From: a virus
Taxonomy: Duplodnaviria; Heunggongvirae; Uroviricota; Caudoviricetes
IMG/VR virus record: IMGVR_UViG_2529292922_000026
Span: 1-13,550 of that record
Length of the DNA: 13,550 bases
Strand: one strand, 5' to 3'
A program made the position numbers and the translations under genes. This document shows positions 1,592 through 13,550 of the stretch, piece by piece. The stretch's first letter is position 1. Each line of letters opens with the position of its first letter. The notes beneath the pieces were generated by a model that worked only from the letters and a program-made list of their open reading frames with translations, was not told the DNA's origin and ran no database searches.

Positions 1592-5276
<3,685 letters not shown>

Positions 5277-5280
<4 letters not shown>

Positions 5281-6008: not shown

Positions 6009-6818
6009 ATGAATAATCTGATGGTCATTGATGGTATTGAAGTTCGTCGTGATGCTTATGGGCGTTACAGCCTGAACGATCTGCATCGCGCAGCAGTAGC
6101 ATCTGGTGCAAATGCCAGAACCAAGGAGCCAGGAAAGTTTCTTTCCAGCCAACAAACTGTTGAGCTTGTTCATGAATTAACCAACACCCAGAATTTGGGT
6201 GTTGACCCGGTGAGTGTGATTCATGGGGGAAATGAACGGGGAACGTATGTCTGTAAGGAACTGGTGTATGCCTATGCAATGTGGATCAGCCCGTCATTCC
6301 ATCTGAAGGTGATCCGTACTTTCGATATGGTAACCAGCGCGCCGGAAAAGTTATCCGGACAGGCTGCTGACAAGATGCAGGCTGGCGTGATCCTGCTGGA
6401 CTTTATGCGCCGGGAGTTAAATCTGTCTAACTCTTCAGTGCTTGGTGCCTGTCAGAAACTCCAGGAGGCTGTTGGCTTACCGAATCTGGCACCGCGCTAT
6501 GCCATTGATGCTCCTGCTGACGCGCCTGATGGCTCAAGCCGCCCGACACTGTCACTGAGTGCACTGCTGAAGCAGTATGGTATCCGCCTGACAGCTAATC
6601 AGGCATATCACCAGATGGCGAAGCTGGGGATCGTTGAACAACGTGAACGATACAGCCGTACCGCGATTAACAACATCAAAAAATTCTGGTCGCTGACGGC
6701 GAAAGGCTGCATGTTCGGCAAGAACATCACCAGTCCCGCAAATCCGCGCGAGACGCAGCCGCATTTCTTCGAATCCCGATTCCCTGAGCTGTTAAAGCTA
6801 CTCGATACCGTTCATTGA
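6009..6818 (+). CDS. KilA-N domain protein (Roi/antirepressor-like)
   Basis: 269 aa; N-terminus (MVIDGIEVRRDAYGRYSLNDLHRAAVASG) resembles the KilA-N DNA-binding domain; strong RBS GAGGAG; position between rusA and Q matches where roi-like genes sit. Confidence 0.5.
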   Translation: MNNLMVIDGIEVRRDAYGRYSLNDLHRAAVASGANARTKEPGKFLSSQQTVELVHELTNTQNLGVDPVSVIHGGNERGTYVCKELVYAYAMWISPSFHLKVIRTFDMVTSAPEKLSGQAADKMQAGVILLDFMRRELNLSNSSVLGACQKLQEAVGLPNLAPRYAIDAPADAPDGSSRPTLSLSALLKQYGIRLTANQAYHQMAKLGIVEQRERYSRTAINNIKKFWSLTAKGCMFGKNITSPANPRETQPHFFESRFPELLKLLDTVH

Positions 6819-6825
6819 GGTGACC

Positions 6826-6913
6826 GTGAGAGCACTACTGACCCCTGAAATTGCCCCGCGTATGGGGATCGTATTGTTCAGGCCAGGTTCAGAGCTGATG
6901 CCCCTGTTTATGC
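6826..6913 (+). pseudogene. 5' fragment of the DUF968 (YdfU-like) gene, separated from the gene body by the IS50-like insertion
   Basis: Frame open from GTG 6826 (RBS GAGG) or ATG 6862 up to the IS end. After removing the IS and one repeat copy the frame joins seamlessly to the ORF at 8468 (...PGSELMPLFM|QGRVLLEPEPE...). Confidence 0.5.
6906..6913. repeat. Direct repeat GTTTATGC flanking the IS50-like element (left copy)
   Basis: Perfect 8-bp repeat immediately outside both IS termini (left 6906-6913, right 8464-8471), consistent with a target-site duplication; 9 bp is expected for this family, so a boundary may be off by one. Confidence 0.6.
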
Positions 6914-8463
6914 CTGTCTCTTATACACAAATCCCCACCCGGGGATTTGTGATGTCTGTCAGTCTGCTTTAGGGGGACTCTTTCCATCCGGTAGTTTCCT
7001 TCCTCCCCGGCAGCGATTTTTTGAACTTTTTCCTCACCCGTTGATCTTCTCTTATATTTCATTTTCTTCGGGTCTGTTATGGTACTTTCTGATTGTTATT
7101 CATGGGCTAACGAGCAGTTTGGACATGCCCGTCTCGGTGATCCGCGTCGTACACGACGCCTTGTGTCACTGGCCTCTTCTCTCGCTCAGCATGCAGGTCT
7201 TTCTATTGTGAAATCATCCCAGTCCACTGCTCAGGTTGAAGGTGCGTACCGCCTGATACGTAACCCGTCTGTGTCCCCGCAAGCCATTGCCGAAGCCGGA
7301 TTTACCGCCACTGTAAGGGCATGTGAGGCTCATCCGCTGCTCCTCGCGCTGGAAGACACCACCACCATTAACTTCAGTCACAGTACGGCATCTGATGACC
7401 TGGGGAATACCACCACTAACCCGAAGACGCGCGGGCTGCTGGCTCACTCTGTCCTGATGTACGCCCCCGACAGCGCCCTGCCAGTCGGTCTTATCGAACA
7501 GCAGCGCTGGAGTCGTGCCACGGACACCTACGGTGTTAAGCACCAGCGAAAAGAACGTCCCTATGAAGAAAAAGAAAGTTACCGCTGGCAGCAGGCTTCG
7601 GAGCGCATGGCCGAACGGCTGGGGGAGATACAGAAACGGGTAATCACTGTCTGTGACCGGGAAGCGGATATCTGGCATTACCTGCATTATAAAGTCAGCC
7701 ACGGGCAGCGCTTCGTGGTGCGTGCAGCACAGAATCGCCGGCTGGAAGAAGCACCCGGCAAGCTCTTCGAACTGCCGGAAGTCCTGGCAACCGCGGGAAG
7801 CCACACGCTGAATGTGATGCAAAAAGGCGGGCGGGCAGCCCGCCAGGCCCGGATGTTCATCAGTTACAGCGAAGTCAGCATAAAAAATCCCGACAACAGC
7901 GGCCAGGCGCTCCCGCTCACGTATGTCTGTTGCCGGGAGCAGGCAGAGGACGGCGCCTGCTGGCATCTGCTGACGTCAGAAAAAGTGGCGAGTGCCGCCG
8001 ATGCGCGACGTATCGTCAGCCATTACGAGCGACGCTGGCTGATAGAGGAATACCACAAGGCGTGGAAAAGTGGTGGTACATGTGTGGAATCGCTGCGAAT
8101 GCAGACCCGGGATAACCTCGAGCGCATGGTGGTTATCAAGGCGTTTATCGCGGTGCGGGTGCTGGGCCTGCGGCAGGGCGGTATCAGTGAAGAAACACAA
8201 AATGACAGCTGTGAGAAAATACTGACGCCGACAGAGTGGAAACTGCTGTGGGTTAAGCTGGAAGGAAAACCGCTTCCGTCACAGATGCCGACACTGAAAT
8301 GGGCCTGTCTGAAACTGGCGAAACTGGGGCGATGGCATGACAGCAAACGCACCGGTCGCCCCGGTTGGGTAGTCATGTGGGATGGCTGGTTCAGACTTCA
8401 GGATATGGTTGAGGGTTACCTGGTGATGAAGTCTCTTGATCAGGAGATCTGATCAAGAGACAG
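6914..8463 (+). mobile_element. IS50-like insertion sequence (IS4 family), about 1550 bp
   Basis: Left end CTGTCTCTTATACACAAAT (6914-6932) resembles the Tn5 outside/mosaic end. Right end reverse complement CTGTCTCTTGATCAGATCT (8445-8463) is identical to the IS50 inside end as I recall it. Contains one transposase ORF. Confidence 0.8.
7079..8452 (+). CDS. IS4-family transposase (Tn5/IS50 Tnp-like)
   Basis: 457 aa; N-terminus (ARLGDPRRTRRLV...EGAYRLIRNP) and C-terminal YREK-type signature (SHYERRWLIEEYHKAWKSG) parallel Tn5 transposase; stop lies within the terminal repeat as in IS50. Confidence 0.9.
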   Translation: MVLSDCYSWANEQFGHARLGDPRRTRRLVSLASSLAQHAGLSIVKSSQSTAQVEGAYRLIRNPSVSPQAIAEAGFTATVRACEAHPLLLALEDTTTINFSHSTASDDLGNTTTNPKTRGLLAHSVLMYAPDSALPVGLIEQQRWSRATDTYGVKHQRKERPYEEKESYRWQQASERMAERLGEIQKRVITVCDREADIWHYLHYKVSHGQRFVVRAAQNRRLEEAPGKLFELPEVLATAGSHTLNVMQKGGRAARQARMFISYSEVSIKNPDNSGQALPLTYVCCREQAEDGACWHLLTSEKVASAADARRIVSHYERRWLIEEYHKAWKSGGTCVESLRMQTRDNLERMVVIKAFIAVRVLGLRQGGISEETQNDSCEKILTPTEWKLLWVKLEGKPLPSQMPTLKWACLKLAKLGRWHDSKRTGRPGWVVMWDGWFRLQDMVEGYLVMKSLDQEI

Positions 8464-8471
8464 GTTTATGC
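8464..8471. repeat. Direct repeat GTTTATGC flanking the IS50-like element (right copy)
   Basis: Identical to 6906-6913; contains the ATG (8468) used as start by the downstream truncated ORF. Confidence 0.6.
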
Positions 8472-9373
8472 AGGGGCGTGTCCTGCTGGAGCCAGAGCCG
8501 GAACGTTATTCATCTTTCGCCAGTGGTGCCGTTCCGGCGGCATCACAACCGCTGGCGGATGATCCTGCCGTTCGGACCGTGTTCCGCAATGAGGCAGTGA
8601 TCCGTCGTGCTGGTGGCGTGGAATGTCTTGAAAGCTGGTTACTTCGTGAAAAAGGTTGCCAGTGGCCTCATTCCGACTGGCACAGCGAGAACATGACCAC
8701 AATGCGACACACGCCGGGCGCAATCCGTCTGTGCTGGCACTGCGATAACCAGCTGCGCGATCAGTTCACGGAACGGCTGGAATCAATGGCAACGGATAAC
8801 TGTACCCGCTGGGTGTTGTCTGTTGTGCGTCGGGATCTCGGTTTTGATGACAGTCACGTTGTGACAATGCCGGAACTGTGCTGGTGGCTGATTCGTAATG
8901 ACCTGGCGGATGCCTTACCGGAAAGTGCAGCCCGTAAGGCACTGAGATTACCGAAGCCTGTTGTGCCGTCTGTCACCCGGGAAAGTGACCTTGTGCCTTC
9001 GGTTCCTGCCACCAGCATCATCCAGGATAAAGCGAAAAAGGTGCTGGCGCTGAAAGTGGATCCGGAGTCGCCGGAGTCTTTTATGTTACGCCCAAAACGT
9101 CGCCGCTGGGTTAATGAAAAGTACACGCGCTGGGTTAAGACACAGCCGTGTGCATGTTGTGGAAAGCCCGCTGATGATCCCCACCACCTGATAGGCCACG
9201 GTCAGTGTGGAATGGGTACAAAAGCGCATGACCTTTTTGTGTTGCCTTTGTGCAGAAAGCATCACGACGAGCTGCATGCGGATACCGTGGCATTTGAAGA
9301 GAAGTATGGCTCTCAGCTGGAGCTGATATTTCGTTTTATCGATCGTGCGCTGGCAATTGGCGTACTGGCGTAA
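8468..9373 (+). CDS. DUF968 family protein (YdfU-like), N-terminally truncated by IS insertion
   Basis: 301 aa; Cys/His-rich C-terminal region (CACCGKPADDPHHLIGHGQCG...LCRKHHDELH); located immediately upstream of the Q-like gene as in Qin-type prophages; its ATG sits in the flanking direct repeat. Confidence 0.6.
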   Translation: MQGRVLLEPEPERYSSFASGAVPAASQPLADDPAVRTVFRNEAVIRRAGGVECLESWLLREKGCQWPHSDWHSENMTTMRHTPGAIRLCWHCDNQLRDQFTERLESMATDNCTRWVLSVVRRDLGFDDSHVVTMPELCWWLIRNDLADALPESAARKALRLPKPVVPSVTRESDLVPSVPATSIIQDKAKKVLALKVDPESPESFMLRPKRRRWVNEKYTRWVKTQPCACCGKPADDPHHLIGHGQCGMGTKAHDLFVLPLCRKHHDELHADTVAFEEKYGSQLELIFRFIDRALAIGVLA

Positions 9374-9386
9374 GTGGAGAACGAGC

Positions 9387-10139
9387 ATGAACCTTGAAGC
9401 CTTACCGAAATATTACTCCCCGAAATCTCCAAAACTGAGCGATGACGCACCGGCGACAGGCTCTGGTGGTTTAACAATTACGGATGTGATGGCTGCGCAG
9501 GGGATGGTGCAGTCAAAAGCACCGCTTGGGTTTGCTTTATTCCTGGCAAAAGTTGGTGTTCAGGATCCTCAGTTTGCGATTGAAGGTCTGCTCAATTACG
9601 CGATGGCACTGGATAACCCGACATTGAATAAATTGAGTGAAGAAACCCGGCTACAGATCATTCCTTACCTTGTGAATTTTGCCTTTGCTGATTATTCCAG
9701 GTCTGCGGCAAGTAAGGCTCGCTGTGAGCATTGTGCTGGTACTGGATTTCATAATGTATTGCGCGAGGTGGTGAAACACTCCAGAAGCGGGGAATCTGTT
9801 ATTAAGGAAGAGTGGGTGAAGGAACTATGTCAGCATTGTCATGGTAAGGGAGAAGTCAGCACAGCATGCAGAGGGTGCAAGGGTAAAGGTATTGTCCTGG
9901 ATGAAAAAAGAACCCGGCTTCATGGCACGCCTGTTTATAAGGTTTGTGGGCGTTGCAATGGAAACCGGTTTAGCCGTTTACCAACCACACTGGCGCGGCT
10001 TCATGTCCAGAAGCTGGTACCAGACCTGACGGATTATCAGTGGTACAAAGGATATGCAGATGTCATTGATAAACTGGTTACAAAGTGCTGGCAGGAAGAA
10101 GCATATGCAGAGATACAATTGAGAAAGGTGACAAGATAA
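9387..10139 (+). CDS. Late-gene antiterminator Q-like protein (QuuQ-like) with four CxxCxGxG repeats
   Basis: 250 aa from ATG 9387 (RBS GGAGA 7 nt upstream), preferred over track start 9345, which overlaps the upstream gene. Position immediately upstream of a candidate promoter plus intrinsic terminator and tRNAs. Motifs CEHCAGTG, CQHCHGKG, CRGCKGKG, CGRCNGN. Confidence 0.6.
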   Translation: MNLEALPKYYSPKSPKLSDDAPATGSGGLTITDVMAAQGMVQSKAPLGFALFLAKVGVQDPQFAIEGLLNYAMALDNPTLNKLSEETRLQIIPYLVNFAFADYSRSAASKARCEHCAGTGFHNVLREVVKHSRSGESVIKEEWVKELCQHCHGKGEVSTACRGCKGKGIVLDEKRTRLHGTPVYKVCGRCNGNRFSRLPTTLARLHVQKLVPDLTDYQWYKGYADVIDKLVTKCWQEEAYAEIQLRKVTR

Positions 10140-10641: not shown

Positions 10642-10717
10642 GGCCCTTTAGCTCAGTGGTGAGAGCGAGCGACTCATAATCGCCAGGTCGCTGGTTCAAA
10701 TCCAGCAAGGGCCACCA
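10642..10717 (+). tRNA. tRNA with anticodon CAU (Ile2/lysidine-type, ileX/ileZ-like; would be called Met by anticodon)
   Basis: 76 nt, acceptor stem GGCCCTT/AAGGGCC, anticodon loop CTCATAA, ends CCA; close to E. coli ileX as I recall it. Confidence 0.85.
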
Positions 10718-10724
10718 TCACATA

Positions 10725-10801
10725 CCGCCATTAGCTCATCGGGATAGAGCGTCAGCCTTCGAAGCTGGCTGTGCGGGGTTCAAGTCCCCGATGGCGGTCC
10801 A
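10725..10801 (+). tRNA. tRNA-Arg (anticodon UCG)
   Basis: 77 nt, acceptor CCGCCAT/ATGGCGG, anticodon stem TCAGC/GCTGG with loop CTTCGAA, T-arm CGGGG-TTCAAGT-CCCCG, CCA end. Confidence 0.85.
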
Positions 10802-10814
10802 TTATCAGCATCAT

Positions 10815-10891
10815 GCGTTGTTAGCTCAGTCGGACAGAGCAATTGCCTTCTAAGCAATCGGTCACTGGTTCGAATCCAGTACAACGCGCCA
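10815..10891 (+). tRNA. tRNA-Arg (anticodon UCU)
   Basis: 77 nt, acceptor GCGTTGT/ACAACGC, anticodon stem ATTGC/GCAAT with loop CTTCTAA, CCA end. Confidence 0.85.
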
Positions 10892-12088: not shown

Positions 12089-12252
12089 CGGTAAAACTGC
12101 GCCTGGCTGTGGCTGCACTCCTGCTGTTTCTGGTGGTGATGGTGGATTTCACCAGCAGAATCATGTCGGTGCTGGCGGATGGGGTGCTGGTCTGCGGCAT
12201 TGTGGTATTGCTGTGGCCGGTGATAAAAAGAAACAGCCTGCATAATGCTTGA
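12085..12252 (+). CDS. Candidate small hydrophobic membrane protein (55 aa), translationally coupled to the TerB-like gene
   Basis: GTG start overlapping the TerB stop (GTGA); translation VTVKLRLAVAALLLFLVVMVDFTSRIMSVLADGVLVCGIVVLLWPVIKRNSLHNA has two hydrophobic stretches. Not in the ORF track. Confidence 0.4.
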   Translation: MTVKLRLAVAALLLFLVVMVDFTSRIMSVLADGVLVCGIVVLLWPVIKRNSLHNA

Positions 12253-12566
12253 TTTTTTTATTTGCTGTTTATTAAAAATACTACTGCATGGTGAATCCCC
12301 CTGTGCGGAGGGGCGATCAGCAACCAGGTATATGGGATAATCGCGGATTCAGGTGCTGATACTGAATTCACCGGGAGGCACCCGGCACCATGCTTTGCCG
12401 CAAAAGTGTTGTTTCTGTTTTTCTCAAACTATCATCGTTATCCCTTTATTTCCGGCTGCGCATGGCGTGGCCTTTTTTTTACGACCAGCCACTGGCAGAT
12501 GGCCATCCTGTAATTTGATTCCGGTTCCGGCTTTTTAACTCTGTTCCTGTACACGGGAGAAATTCG

Positions 12567-13550
12567 ATGTCGATTAAACATTATGATGTTGTCAGGGCGG
12601 CGTCGCCGTCAGACCTTGCGGAAAAGCTGACACACAAACTGAAAGAGGGCTGGCAGCCGTTTGGTAGTCCGGTGGCCATAACCCCTTATACCCTGATGCA
12701 GGCGATTACAGCAGAAGGTGATGTGGTGGTCAGTGGTGCAACTGAGCCGGATTGGTACTACGTCATCGTACTGGCCGGGCAGTCCAATGCCATGGCTTAC
12801 GGTGAAGGGCTTCCGCTGCCGGATTCATACGATGCTCCGGATCCGCGCATTAAACAGCTGGCGCGCCGCAGTACAGTTACGCCGGGTGGGGCTGCATGCA
12901 GATATAACGATATTATTCCGGCCGACCACTGCCTGCATGATGTGCAGGATATGAGTACGCTGAATCATCCGAAGGCAGACCTGAGCAAAGGGCAGTACGG
13001 CTGTGTCGGCCAGGGCTTACATATTGCCAAAAAACTGCTCCCGTATATCCCGAATAACGCGGGGATCCTGCTGGTACCATGCTGTCGTGGTGGTTCGGCA
13101 TTCACCCAGGGCGCGGAGGGGACATTCAGTGCGGACACGGGGGCCAGCCAGGATTCGGCACGCTGGGGTGTGGGTAAACCGTTATATCAGGACCTGATTG
13201 CGCGCACTAAAGCTGCATTACAGAAGAACCCGAAAAATGTGTTGCTGGCGGTGTGCTGGATGCAGGGAGAGTTTGACATGAGCGCCGCCACCCACGCACA
13301 GCAACCTGCGCTGTTTACAGCCATGCTGACACAGTTTCGTGCTGACCTCTCCGTGTTTAACGCGCAGTGCCATGGTGGCAGTGCTGCAGATGTGCCGTGG
13401 ATTTGTGGTGACACGACGTATTACTGGAAAAATACATACGCTACCCAGTACGACACCGTGTACGGCGGGTATAAAAACAGGGAGAGTGAGGGCGTTTATT
13501 TTGTGCCCTTCATGACAGACGGTAACGGCGTCAATACCGCCACTAACGCA
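12567..13550 (+). CDS. SASA-domain sialate O-acetylesterase, NanS-p/YjhS-like, 3'-partial
   Basis: Open frame from ATG 12567 (RBS GGGAGA) to the window end, 328 codons with no stop; absent from the ORF track because no stop lies in the window. Motif GQSNAMAYGEG; this gene family sits downstream of stxB in Stx phages. Confidence 0.8.
   Translation, partial: MSIKHYDVVRAASPSDLAEKLTHKLKEGWQPFGSPVAITPYTLMQAITAEGDVVVSGATEPDWYYVIVLAGQSNAMAYGEGLPLPDSYDAPDPRIKQLARRSTVTPGGAACRYNDIIPADHCLHDVQDMSTLNHPKADLSKGQYGCVGQGLHIAKKLLPYIPNNAGILLVPCCRGGSAFTQGAEGTFSADTGASQDSARWGVGKPLYQDLIARTKAALQKNPKNVLLAVCWMQGEFDMSAATHAQQPALFTAMLTQFRADLSVFNAQCHGGSAADVPWICGDTTYYWKNTYATQYDTVYGGYKNRESEGVYFVPFMTDGNGVNTATNA

Follow-up and report, generated by a model that had tools for sequence, protein, structure and literature searches.

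Insertion of ISEc13 at a palindromic target in codon 30 of a prophage DUF968 gene, with probable loss of gene function

The 13,550-bp stretch of Caudoviricetes DNA analysed here (the window) carries a transposable element between a short open frame and a longer DUF968 frame, which raises the question of what inserted, into which gene, why at this position and to what effect. We put at about 95% the reading that one transposition of ISEc13 entered codon 30 of the DUF968 gene, that target preference chose the site and that the function of the gene was probably lost. Both the element and the insertion event are already known, and the occupied locus already stands in public databases. We begin with the element itself, which has the following parts.

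6914-8463, plus strand: complete insertion sequence ISEc13, 1550 bp, IS4 family, IS50 subgroup
6914-6932, plus strand: left terminal inverted repeat of outside-end type, CTGTCTCTTATACACAAAT, matching the Tn5 outside end at 17/19 positions
8445-8463, minus strand: right terminal inverted repeat, reverse complement CTGTCTCTTGATCAGATCT, 19/19 identical to the IS50 inside end
6926-6951, plus strand: subterminal hairpin with an 11-bp stem, CACAAATCCCC / GGGGATTTGTG, and a 4-nt loop
8431-8461, plus strand: right-end hairpin with a 13-bp stem, in which the right end pairs with an inverted copy farther inside the IS and which holds the transposase stop codon (8450-8452)
7079-8452, plus strand: intact ISEc13 transposase gene, 457 aa, DDE/YREK Tn5-type

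The limits at 6914 and 8463 were set by comparison with empty sites. These 1550 bp agree at every base (100% identity) with copies from E. coli O127:H6 E2348/69 and from further E. coli; identical copies are annotated 'IS4-like element ISEc13 family transposase', and the name is taken from this RefSeq/PGAP label rather than from the ISfinder reference sequence. By ISfinder convention, one IS name covers copies of roughly >95% nucleotide identity. Full-length ISEc13 occurs in 874 complete E. coli genomes. Sequence identity thus places the window element as the catalogued ISEc13 and not IS50. The Tn5-like ends described in the initial annotation were confirmed by the matches listed above. The left end CTGTCTCTTATACACAAAT fits the IS50-subgroup end consensus CW------Y---CA-A--W- (PMC2266710), and both ends agree with it at positions 1, 2, 9, 13, 14, 16 and 19 (left CTGTCTCTTATACACAAATC; right, as reverse complement, CTGTCTCTTGATCAGATCTC). 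The length of 1550 bp and the 8-bp duplication likewise lie within the ranges that De Palmenaer et al. 2008 (PMC2266710) give for the subgroup, 1350-1550 bp and direct repeats of 8-9 bp. Two GATC sites lie in the right end CTGTCTCTTGATCAGATCT, and this end, being identical to the inside end, is expected to be Dam-sensitive. Folding of 6895-6965 gave -22.5 kcal/mol (z = -3.9) for the subterminal hairpin, and folding of 8425-8500 gave -37.1 kcal/mol (z = -5.0) for the right-end hairpin.

The transposase, WP_000244358.1, is also encoded by other ISEc13 copies. It matches the Pfam families Tnp_DNA_bind, DDE_Tnp_1 and Dimer_Tnp_Tn5, reaches 514 bits (cutoff 160) with NCBIfam NF033590 (IS4 family transposase) and aligns with the Tn5 transposase structures 1MUH/4DM0 at E = 6e-84 and ~42% identity. 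As in the rest of the IS50 subgroup, there is one transposase ORF without a frameshift and the DDE triad is present: the segments 'ALEDTT', 'VCDREAD' and 'LIEEYHKAWK' align with the Tn5 catalytic segments, which we take to hold D97, D188 and E326. The Y-(2)-R-(3)-E-(6)-K signature is found in 'shYerRwliEeyhkawK', aligned to Tn5 'iYthRwriEefhkawK'. IS50 proper is ruled out by the ~42% amino-acid identity and by a duplication of 8 bp, not 9 bp; the earlier label 'IS50-like' therefore holds at the level of the subgroup, within which the element is ISEc13.

The duplication consists of two copies.

6906-6913: left target-site duplication copy, GTTTATGC, abutting the left end of the IS
8464-8471: right target-site duplication copy, GTTTATGC, abutting the right end of the IS

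The repeat is perfect, as first reported, and exactly 8 bp long, the adjoining bases being different (T/G outside, C/A inside), which rules out a 9-bp Tn5-type duplication at this site. A chance match of 8 bp at a fixed junction has a probability of ~1.5e-5, and the single copy present at empty sites proves that GTTTATGC is a target-site duplication. Simple transposition is indicated by the same duplication on both sides together with a one-copy empty site in related genomes. The transposase dimer would have cut the target with an 8-bp stagger, and gap repair would have produced the GTTTATGC duplication, a chemistry proposed by analogy with Tn5. Other ISEc13 copies have duplications of 8 bp and sometimes 9 bp; since 9 bp rather than 8 bp were duplicated at four sites, the stagger of ISEc13 is not fixed.

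The interrupted gene is now in two parts.

6826-6913, plus strand: 5′ fragment of the DUF968 gene, with the GTG start, codons 1-29 and the first base of codon 30
8468-9373, plus strand: 3′ remainder of DUF968, an open frame of 301 aa counted from ATG 8468, which was codon 29 before the insertion, with the His-Me finger / DUF968 domain intact

Once the IS and one repeat copy are removed, the empty site is expected to read CCCCTGTTTATGCAGGGG, and 6826-6913 joined to 8472-9373 forms a 990-nt open frame of 329 codons, in agreement with the claim that an intact gene was split near its 5′ end. The reconstructed gene has the length and the GTG start of the annotated DUF968 CDS in three intact alleles (L001, L002 and L003), whose PGAP start maps to 6826, and differs from them by 28, 7 and 8 nucleotides, respectively, without gaps; this is the alignment that the initial annotation had proposed as a check. 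The joined flanks also occur in one piece in 2,268 E. coli records, annotated KilA-N and DUF968. At present the 5′ fragment runs on into the IS and ends at the stop codon 6970-6972; the resulting fusion ORF of 48 aa is listed by gene callers in L005-L007. ATG 8468 lies, as was noted at the outset, within the right copy of GTTTATGC, and the exact 301-aa product was called on 19 public contigs.

GTG 6826 and ATG 6862 had both been put forward as the original start. Homologues of 329-330 aa in Salmonella, Kosakonia, Phytobacter and Citrobacter, at 68-86% identity, can be aligned from their first residue onward, and M1, R2, L4, L5, P7, G14, V16, P20, G21 and F28 do not vary among them. Conservation of the 28 lost N-terminal residues, even in homologues of only 68% identity, identifies GTG 6826 as the true start; ATG 6862 is ruled out, as M13 is not conserved and all homologues begin MRALL. 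The break, earlier given as 17-29 codons from the start, therefore falls in codon 30. Residue 29 is H, R or M in the homologues.

Pfam PF06147 (DUF968) matches residues 132-298 of the remainder at 268.6 bits (cutoff 27.8), and there is a weak match to YbcO (PDB 3g27). DUF968 has been classed among the His-Me finger nucleases, group 7 (PMC5714182), and C256, C259, H267, H268, H272, H282, C290, H294 and H298 are invariant in the alignment of the family. Judged from these motifs, the product is a putative YdfU-like His-Me finger nuclease. The gene is located in the nin region of a lambdoid E. coli prophage, between the KilA-N gene and the Q antiterminator gene, and the RusA gene adjoins it.

The insertion cuts off the GTG start, the ribosome-binding site and codons 1-29, which are conserved, from everything downstream in the gene, and the expected outcome is a null or severely reduced allele plus a leftover 301-codon open frame. 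The initial annotation had suggested that the remainder could be expressed by read-out from the IS. In its strongest form, this suggestion would have the 301-aa remainder still made as a shortened active protein with an intact nuclease domain, by read-through from the transposase gene or from upstream phage promoters and with an ATG supplied by the duplication. The frame is indeed uninterrupted in the window lineage, a scan found no plus-strand terminator-like site within the IS, and re-initiation is conceivable with the transposase stop codon lying 16 nt upstream of ATG 8468. However, a consensus scan of 6700-9500 found no sigma-70-like promoter, no Shine-Dalgarno sequence lies at a useful distance from ATG 8468, and the strong 13-bp-stem hairpin ends 7 nt upstream of it, a putative intrinsic-terminator block to read-out at the IS end. 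The window has lost the early region of the prophage along with the promoters there, the deleted 28 residues are probably needed because they are conserved, and in L082, an occupied allele of independent origin, a frameshift has broken the decaying remainder. We consider continued production of an active protein unlikely and the read-out proposal unsupported; loss of function, most likely as a null or severely reduced allele, is our inference, and the still-open remainder may be translated at a low level from ATG 8468.

Why the element entered at this position is suggested by the sequence on either side of the duplication.

6900-6905: left arm of the palindromic ISEc13 target, the C-rich half-site GCCCCT
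8472-8477: right arm of the palindromic ISEc13 target, the G-rich half-site AGGGGC

Symmetrised counts over 11 independent sites with 8-bp duplications revealed that ISEc13 sites follow a palindromic CCYCY-N8-RGRGG pattern; positions -4 and -2 are C in every one of the 11 unique sites, and positions +2 and +4 are G. The motif is based on ~14 ISEc13 sites from a handful of strains; the window site is one of the 11 that define it, and the remaining 10 give the same core. The DUF968 site, GCCCCT-GTTTATGC-AGGGGC, is a perfect instance; no other full match turned up in the 11,992-bp window freed of the IS or in 41.7 kb of empty loci, against an expectation of 0.18 matches. The position of the insertion is not random, and target preference for this palindrome accounts for it. 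Many other ISEc13 sites are hairpin-like, terminator-like sequences between convergent genes.

The same junction is also occupied elsewhere, by an ISEc13 in the opposite orientation in L087 and by copies oriented as in the window in L082 and L088. Over 1300 nt of flank, L082 differs from the window at 35 positions and L087 at 38, against 20 for an empty allele; the IS of L082 has only 1 mismatch, and the empty allele nearest to the L082 allele matches it at 98.8%. All of these alleles could descend from one ancient insertion that was spread by recombination between lambdoid prophages, which are mosaic, and the shared orientation in L082, L088 and the window would agree with such a descent without a hot spot. 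An inverted copy at the identical junction is incompatible with a single event, though, and divergence of the flanks, at 2.2-2.9%, sets in within ~30 bp on either side of the IS, which itself shows 0-1 nt of difference. The window allele is, moreover, nearer to the empty allele than to the other occupied alleles, and other sites have likewise been hit repeatedly: ibs has been entered in either orientation, and at agp-yccJ duplications of 8 bp as well as 9 bp occur. A single ancient insertion is accordingly very improbable. With independence judged from the L087 inversion and the flank divergence, the same 8 bp in DUF968 alleles were hit independently at least twice, once inverted, and probably three or four times.

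Relatives of ISEc13 down to ~46-50% transposase identity were found in Scandinavium, Pantoea, Alishewanella, Colwellia and Alteromonas. We think it likely, with less assurance than for the insertion itself, that ISEc13 and its relatives form a clade within the IS50 subgroup that selects palindromic targets with C-rich/G-rich arms around 8-10 duplicated bp, and that the 5′ end of this DUF968 allele is a recurrent, sequence-directed knock-out site. The palindromic ISEc13 target pattern is new here; no description of its target specificity was found in the searchable literature, ISfinder excepted. The same literature contained no functional study of ISEc13 or DUF968, ISEc13 appearing only in passing mentions.

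The occupied locus, located by exact-protein look-up of the 301-aa remnant, is present in public E. coli assemblies including drafts of the DECA collection, at 100% identity over 13,550 bp in L004 and L007 and at >=99.98% in L005 and L006. Among 5,426 complete E. coli genomes no place covered >=80% of the occupied-site query, and the exact left junction was absent from the one-genome-per-species contigs. The ISEc13 flanks used above come from complete genomes, as the IS is mostly reduced to 1.5-kb contigs in species-representative drafts (L014 and L015); the search of species-representative contigs supplied the distant relatives. Comparison of the assemblies shows which event came first: ISEc13 stands alone in L005, an IS100 in dam with a 5-bp duplication joins it in L006, and the window has in addition lost the left IS100 flank. 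The ISEc13 insertion thus predates the IS100 insertion and the deletion and is therefore clone-wide rather than strain-private, so that the event, first called recent, is recent only in a relative sense.

Two further explanations carry almost no weight. The continuity of the frame might be coincidental, DUF968 starting naturally at ATG 8468 and the IS lying in an intergenic spacer; ATG 8468 does open a 301-codon frame that gene callers accept, with the Pfam domain wholly downstream of it, but in intact alleles the annotated CDS begins at the position that corresponds to 6826 and runs unbroken across the junction, and the homologues have invariant residues within the first 28 and no conserved start at M29, instead of beginning at the equivalent of 8468 behind unrelated upstream sequence. 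Junctions made when two ISEc13 copies recombine, or when an assembly joins unrelated flanks, have precedents in L008 (left flank replaced by hydN-hypF DNA), in the E2348/69 copies L067 and L069 (no duplications) and in L083 and L084 (duplications swapped), but both window flanks share the 8 bp and rejoin exactly into the sequence of thousands of empty sites, and the identity of the occupied locus in several independent assemblies, including one 5.1-Mb contig, rules out an assembly artefact. A single cut-and-paste transposition, placing one intact ISEc13 in codon 30 of the DUF968 gene, would account for the locus.

In itself the event matters little, as another case of a gene broken by an IS in an E. 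coli prophage that is decaying. The insertion, the later IS100 and the deletion nevertheless provide a lineage marker for near-identical E. coli assemblies, DECA-collection drafts included, and the 301-aa 'DUF968 protein' of these assemblies is best annotated as a truncated pseudogene remnant whose true start was GTG 6826. The palindromic pattern suggests a natural Tn5 relative with strong, simple target specificity; it could help to predict ISEc13 insertion sites and might inform efforts to alter the target choice of Tn5-type transposases.

Compared with known systems, YdfU (Qin prophage, DUF968) and YbcO (DUF1364, PDB 3g27) share the C-terminal Cys/His motif; the family has no experimentally defined function, and no nuclease test was found for it. 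Unlike the YdfU-type family, the window copy lacks the first 28 residues and its own translation start. The window element shows no differences from the ISEc13 of E2348/69, down to the same 457-aa protein, and only its insertion locus, found also in the public assemblies, is particular to it. ISEc13 resembles IS50 / Tn5 in having a single DDE/YREK transposase with an N-terminal DNA-binding and a C-terminal dimerisation domain, and in its ends, the right one equal to the inside end including both GATC sites and the left one close to the outside end. It differs in its ~42% identical transposase, in a duplication of 8 bp against 9 bp in Tn5 and in its length, IS50 measuring 1534 bp. Tn5 moves by cut-and-paste through hairpin intermediates, and ISEc13, by analogy, presumably uses the same pathway. 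The arms of the ISEc13 target lie outside the duplication, whereas the Tn5 consensus A-GNTYWRANC-T, as given where PMC1525189 cites Goryshin 1998, lies inside it. Palindromes and target-arm specificity are described for several IS families (PMC1525189, PMC2266710), and IS231A (GGG-N5-CCC), ISRm22 (IS4 family, REP targets) and IS1397 / ISKpn1 / IS621 (REP targets) are like ISEc13 in using inverted-repeat targets with the duplication centred between the arms. ISEc13 differs from them in that the CCYCY ... RGRGG arms with 8-bp spacing are its own and those of its relatives, in that its targets are not a single REP family and in that the window target lies within a coding sequence.

Comparison of the window with public sequences confirmed that an insertion sequence occupies the DUF968 gene and supported, with refinements, the interpretation first given to it. 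The features concerned are listed below, the limits of the inserted element being read from the window sequence.

1-1191, P4-type integrase gene, first 6 codons missing at the window edge
1958-2404, possibly up to 2853, minus strand, CptA-like phosphoethanolamine transferase pseudogene fragments
2820-4773, complete IS100 (IS21 family), with istA at 2906-3928 and istB at 3925-4707
6826-6972, 5′ stump of the DUF968 gene, a 48-aa fusion ORF ending at 6972
6914-8463, ISEc13, 1550 bp
7079-8452, ISEc13 transposase ORF, 457 aa
8468-9373, 3′ remnant of the DUF968 gene, 301 codons
9387-10139, Q antiterminator gene
10642-10891, cluster of three tRNAs downstream of the Q gene

The initial annotation described an IS50-like element with Tn5-like ends and a perfect 8-bp direct repeat, and both marks are present: the left end CTGTCTCTTATACACAAAT agrees with the Tn5 outside end at 17/19 positions, the right end (reverse complement CTGTCTCTTGATCAGATCT) agrees with the IS50 inside end at 19/19, and the octamer GTTTATGC adjoins both ends (6906-6913 and 8464-8471), the repeat being exactly 8 bp because the adjoining base differs on each side. 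Searched by megablast, 5,426 complete E. coli genomes yielded 100% identical copies of 6914-8463, and the 30 matching places in E2348/69 are all annotated as 'IS4-like element ISEc13 family transposase'. The 457-aa ORF contains the Pfam domains Tnp_DNA_bind, DDE_Tnp_1 and Dimer_Tnp_Tn5, scores 514 bits against the NCBIfam IS4 model (cutoff 160) and matches the solved Tn5 transposase (E = 6e-84, ~42% identity), with the DDE-triad segments and the Y(2)R(3)E(6)K signature aligned to their Tn5 counterparts. Its size, ends and repeat length all fit the IS50 subgroup that De Palmenaer et al. 2008 defined (PMC2266710), with a size of 1350-1550 bp, ends CW------Y---CA-A--W- and direct repeats of 8-9 bp. 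The subgroup label was correct, but the identical copies and the distance from Tn5 transposase identify the element, by sequence, as ISEc13 and not IS50 proper.

Joining 6826-6913 to 8472-9373 yields a 990-nt open frame, and the empty site occurs in one piece in 2,268 E. coli records (95-99% identity to the joined 600 + 600 bp flanks), annotated 'KilA-N domain-containing protein' and 'DUF968 domain-containing protein'. In the three records compared closely, L001 (O177:H21), L002 (O26:H11 11368) and L003 (CD45), a single copy of the octamer is present and the DUF968 CDS is 990 nt long, differing from the reconstructed gene by 28, 7 and 8 nucleotides, respectively, without gaps, which bears out the proposal that an intact gene was split. 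Homologues found by protein search in Salmonella, Kosakonia, Phytobacter and Citrobacter (329-330 aa, 68-86% identity, full coverage) share invariant residues from the first position (M1 R2 L4 L5 P7 G14 V16 P20 G21 F28) and do not begin at the equivalent of 8468; M13 and M29 vary among them. Either GTG 6826 or ATG 6862 had been proposed as the start. The gapless alleles, whose GTG maps to 6826, and the conserved N-terminus show GTG 6826, preceded by GAGGTGA, to be the original start, and ATG 6862 (M13) was dropped. The insertion lies after nucleotide 88, within codon 30, and the right repeat copy does supply ATG 8468, at original codon 29. Residue 275 of the reconstructed protein (9290-9292) is Cys, in place of an almost invariant Gly of the motif GHGQ-G-GMGTKAH; since intact L002 and L003 also have Cys, this is an allele feature rather than decay after insertion.

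In prophage nin regions, DUF968 and YbcO (PDB 3g27) are grouped as putative His-Me finger (HNH-type) domains (PMC5714182, PMC4118853). The DUF968 domain is retained in the remnant, and a consensus scan found no plus-strand terminator within ISEc13. Expression of the remnant by read-out from the element, as once suggested, is nevertheless improbable: the remnant lacks 28 conserved residues and the original start codon and ribosome-binding site, the same scan gave no sigma-70-like promoter anywhere in 6700-9500, no Shine-Dalgarno sequence was found at a useful distance from ATG 8468, a hairpin with a 13-bp stem (8431-8461) ends 7 nt upstream of this ATG, and the prophage early region is also absent from the window. 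The interrupted allele is therefore most likely null.

An exact-protein look-up located the 301-aa remnant on 19 public contigs; among complete RefSeq E. coli genomes, no occupied site was found. The entire window is matched at 100% identity by L004 (GCA_900448265.1, on a contig of 5.1 Mb) and by L007 (GCA_000249095.2), whereas L005 (GCA_000249155.2) carries the same ISEc13 insertion but has an unbroken dam gene and its whole early region, and L006 (GCA_000249055.2) carries it together with IS100 in dam as a simple insertion with the 5-bp duplication ACTGA. The E. coli DECA collection (PMC3558956) includes accession blocks AIEV-AIHS. The IS100 of the window, of which many E. coli have 100% identical copies, also breaks the phage dam methyltransferase gene, leaving the C-terminal part alone (4774-5280). 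In the window, L004 and L007, its left flank is replaced by unrelated DNA (the integrase and phosphoethanolamine-transferase fragment), and 1-2819 has no similarity to the intact prophage versions (L001, L003, L005, L006), so the early region was removed by deletion or IS100-mediated rearrangement. The most parsimonious order is ISEc13, then IS100, then the deletion or rearrangement. Near ISEc13 the carriers are all the same, and the few differences between them are concentrated beyond position 12,200. Those against L008 and L013, otherwise identical carriers, cluster at 12220-13401, within the SASA-family esterase gene and in the region ahead of it, which suggests local recombination patches. 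On an evolutionary scale the insertion can fairly be called recent, in view of its perfect duplication, the identity of ISEc13 to active-looking copies and the open remnant, but it is clone-wide and predates two later rearrangements. Downstream, the first tRNA of the cluster is tRNA-Met (CAT) by ARAGORN, its equivalent in L002 and L003 being tRNA-Ile in RefSeq; the others are tRNA-Arg (TCG) and tRNA-Arg (TCT).

Four occupied DUF968 contexts were found. In L082 (GCA_045344535.1), where the allele lies beside a different Q gene, ISEc13 occupies the same 8 bp; the element has 1 mismatch, flank mismatches start ~30 bp from each end and the remnant is frameshifted. In L087, a metagenome contig, the junction is identical but ISEc13 points the other way. 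L088, an IMG/VR contig, has the orientation of the window, but its DNA ahead of position 6805 is unrelated. The 1300-nt upstream flank of the window has 35 differences from that of L082 and 38 from that of L087, but only 20 from that of empty L003. Judged from these orientations and flanks, the site was certainly hit by two or more independent insertions, and probably by three or four. An ibs site also carries ISEc13 in both orientations (L071, L072), and the agp-yccJ site has an 8-bp or a 9-bp duplication (L074, L079), a difference that a one-base sequencing error could explain.

Comparing the flanks of ISEc13 copies gave 11 unique sites with 8-bp duplications, that of the window among them, preceded by CCYCY and followed by RGRGG, with C at -4 and -2 and G at +2 and +4 in 22/22 half-sites; four sites have 9-bp duplications. 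The DUF968 site, GCCCCT-GTTTATGC-AGGGGC, is a perfect instance of CCYCY-N8-RGRGG, and neither the 11,992-bp IS-less window nor 41.7 kb of empty prophage loci contains another match (expected 0.18); the relaxed core CYCY-N8-RGRG adds one unoccupied locus in the IS-less window (about 12297-12313, CCCCCTGTGCGGAGGGG). Complementarity between the six-base arms averages 4.7/6 positions, compared with 1.5 for random positions. The constant 5′ position of the C-rich arm speaks for recognition of specific bases and not of a hairpin alone, and relatives with 46-77% identical transposases (Scandinavium, Pantoea, Colwellia, Alishewanella, Alteromonas) show the same arrangement. A subterminal hairpin just inside the left end (6926-6951) has arms ATCCCC/GGGGAT, the arm sequence of some targets (e.g. 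the site L081), with a 4-nt instead of an 8-nt spacer, and might act as a decoy or influence self-targeting.

Some copies show signs of rearrangement. Two inverted ones in GCA_045344535.1 (L083/L084; CP148541.1, about 2.30 and 2.36 Mb) have swapped 8-bp duplications, CTCCCCAA and CGAACCAG, the signature of a ~60-kb inversion by recombination between them. Copies at L008 (ADUL01000048.1, 4885-6433), L067 and L069 (E2348/69 chromosome and pMAR2) lack matching duplications, which points to IS-mediated rearrangement or misassembly; L008 retains the right junction on the DUF968 side, with hydN-hypF DNA on its left and a frameshifted transposase.

The literature searched, ISfinder being outside that search, contained no mention of CCYCY-N8-RGRGG for ISEc13. 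Public data already contained the element and the event, both of a known kind, to which the palindromic target preference and the repeated hits make a small, testable addition. Both within the IS4 family and outside it, elements with palindromic or arm-specific targets are known, such as IS231A, ISRm22 and the REP-targeting IS1397, ISKpn1 and IS621 (PMC2266710, PMC1525189).
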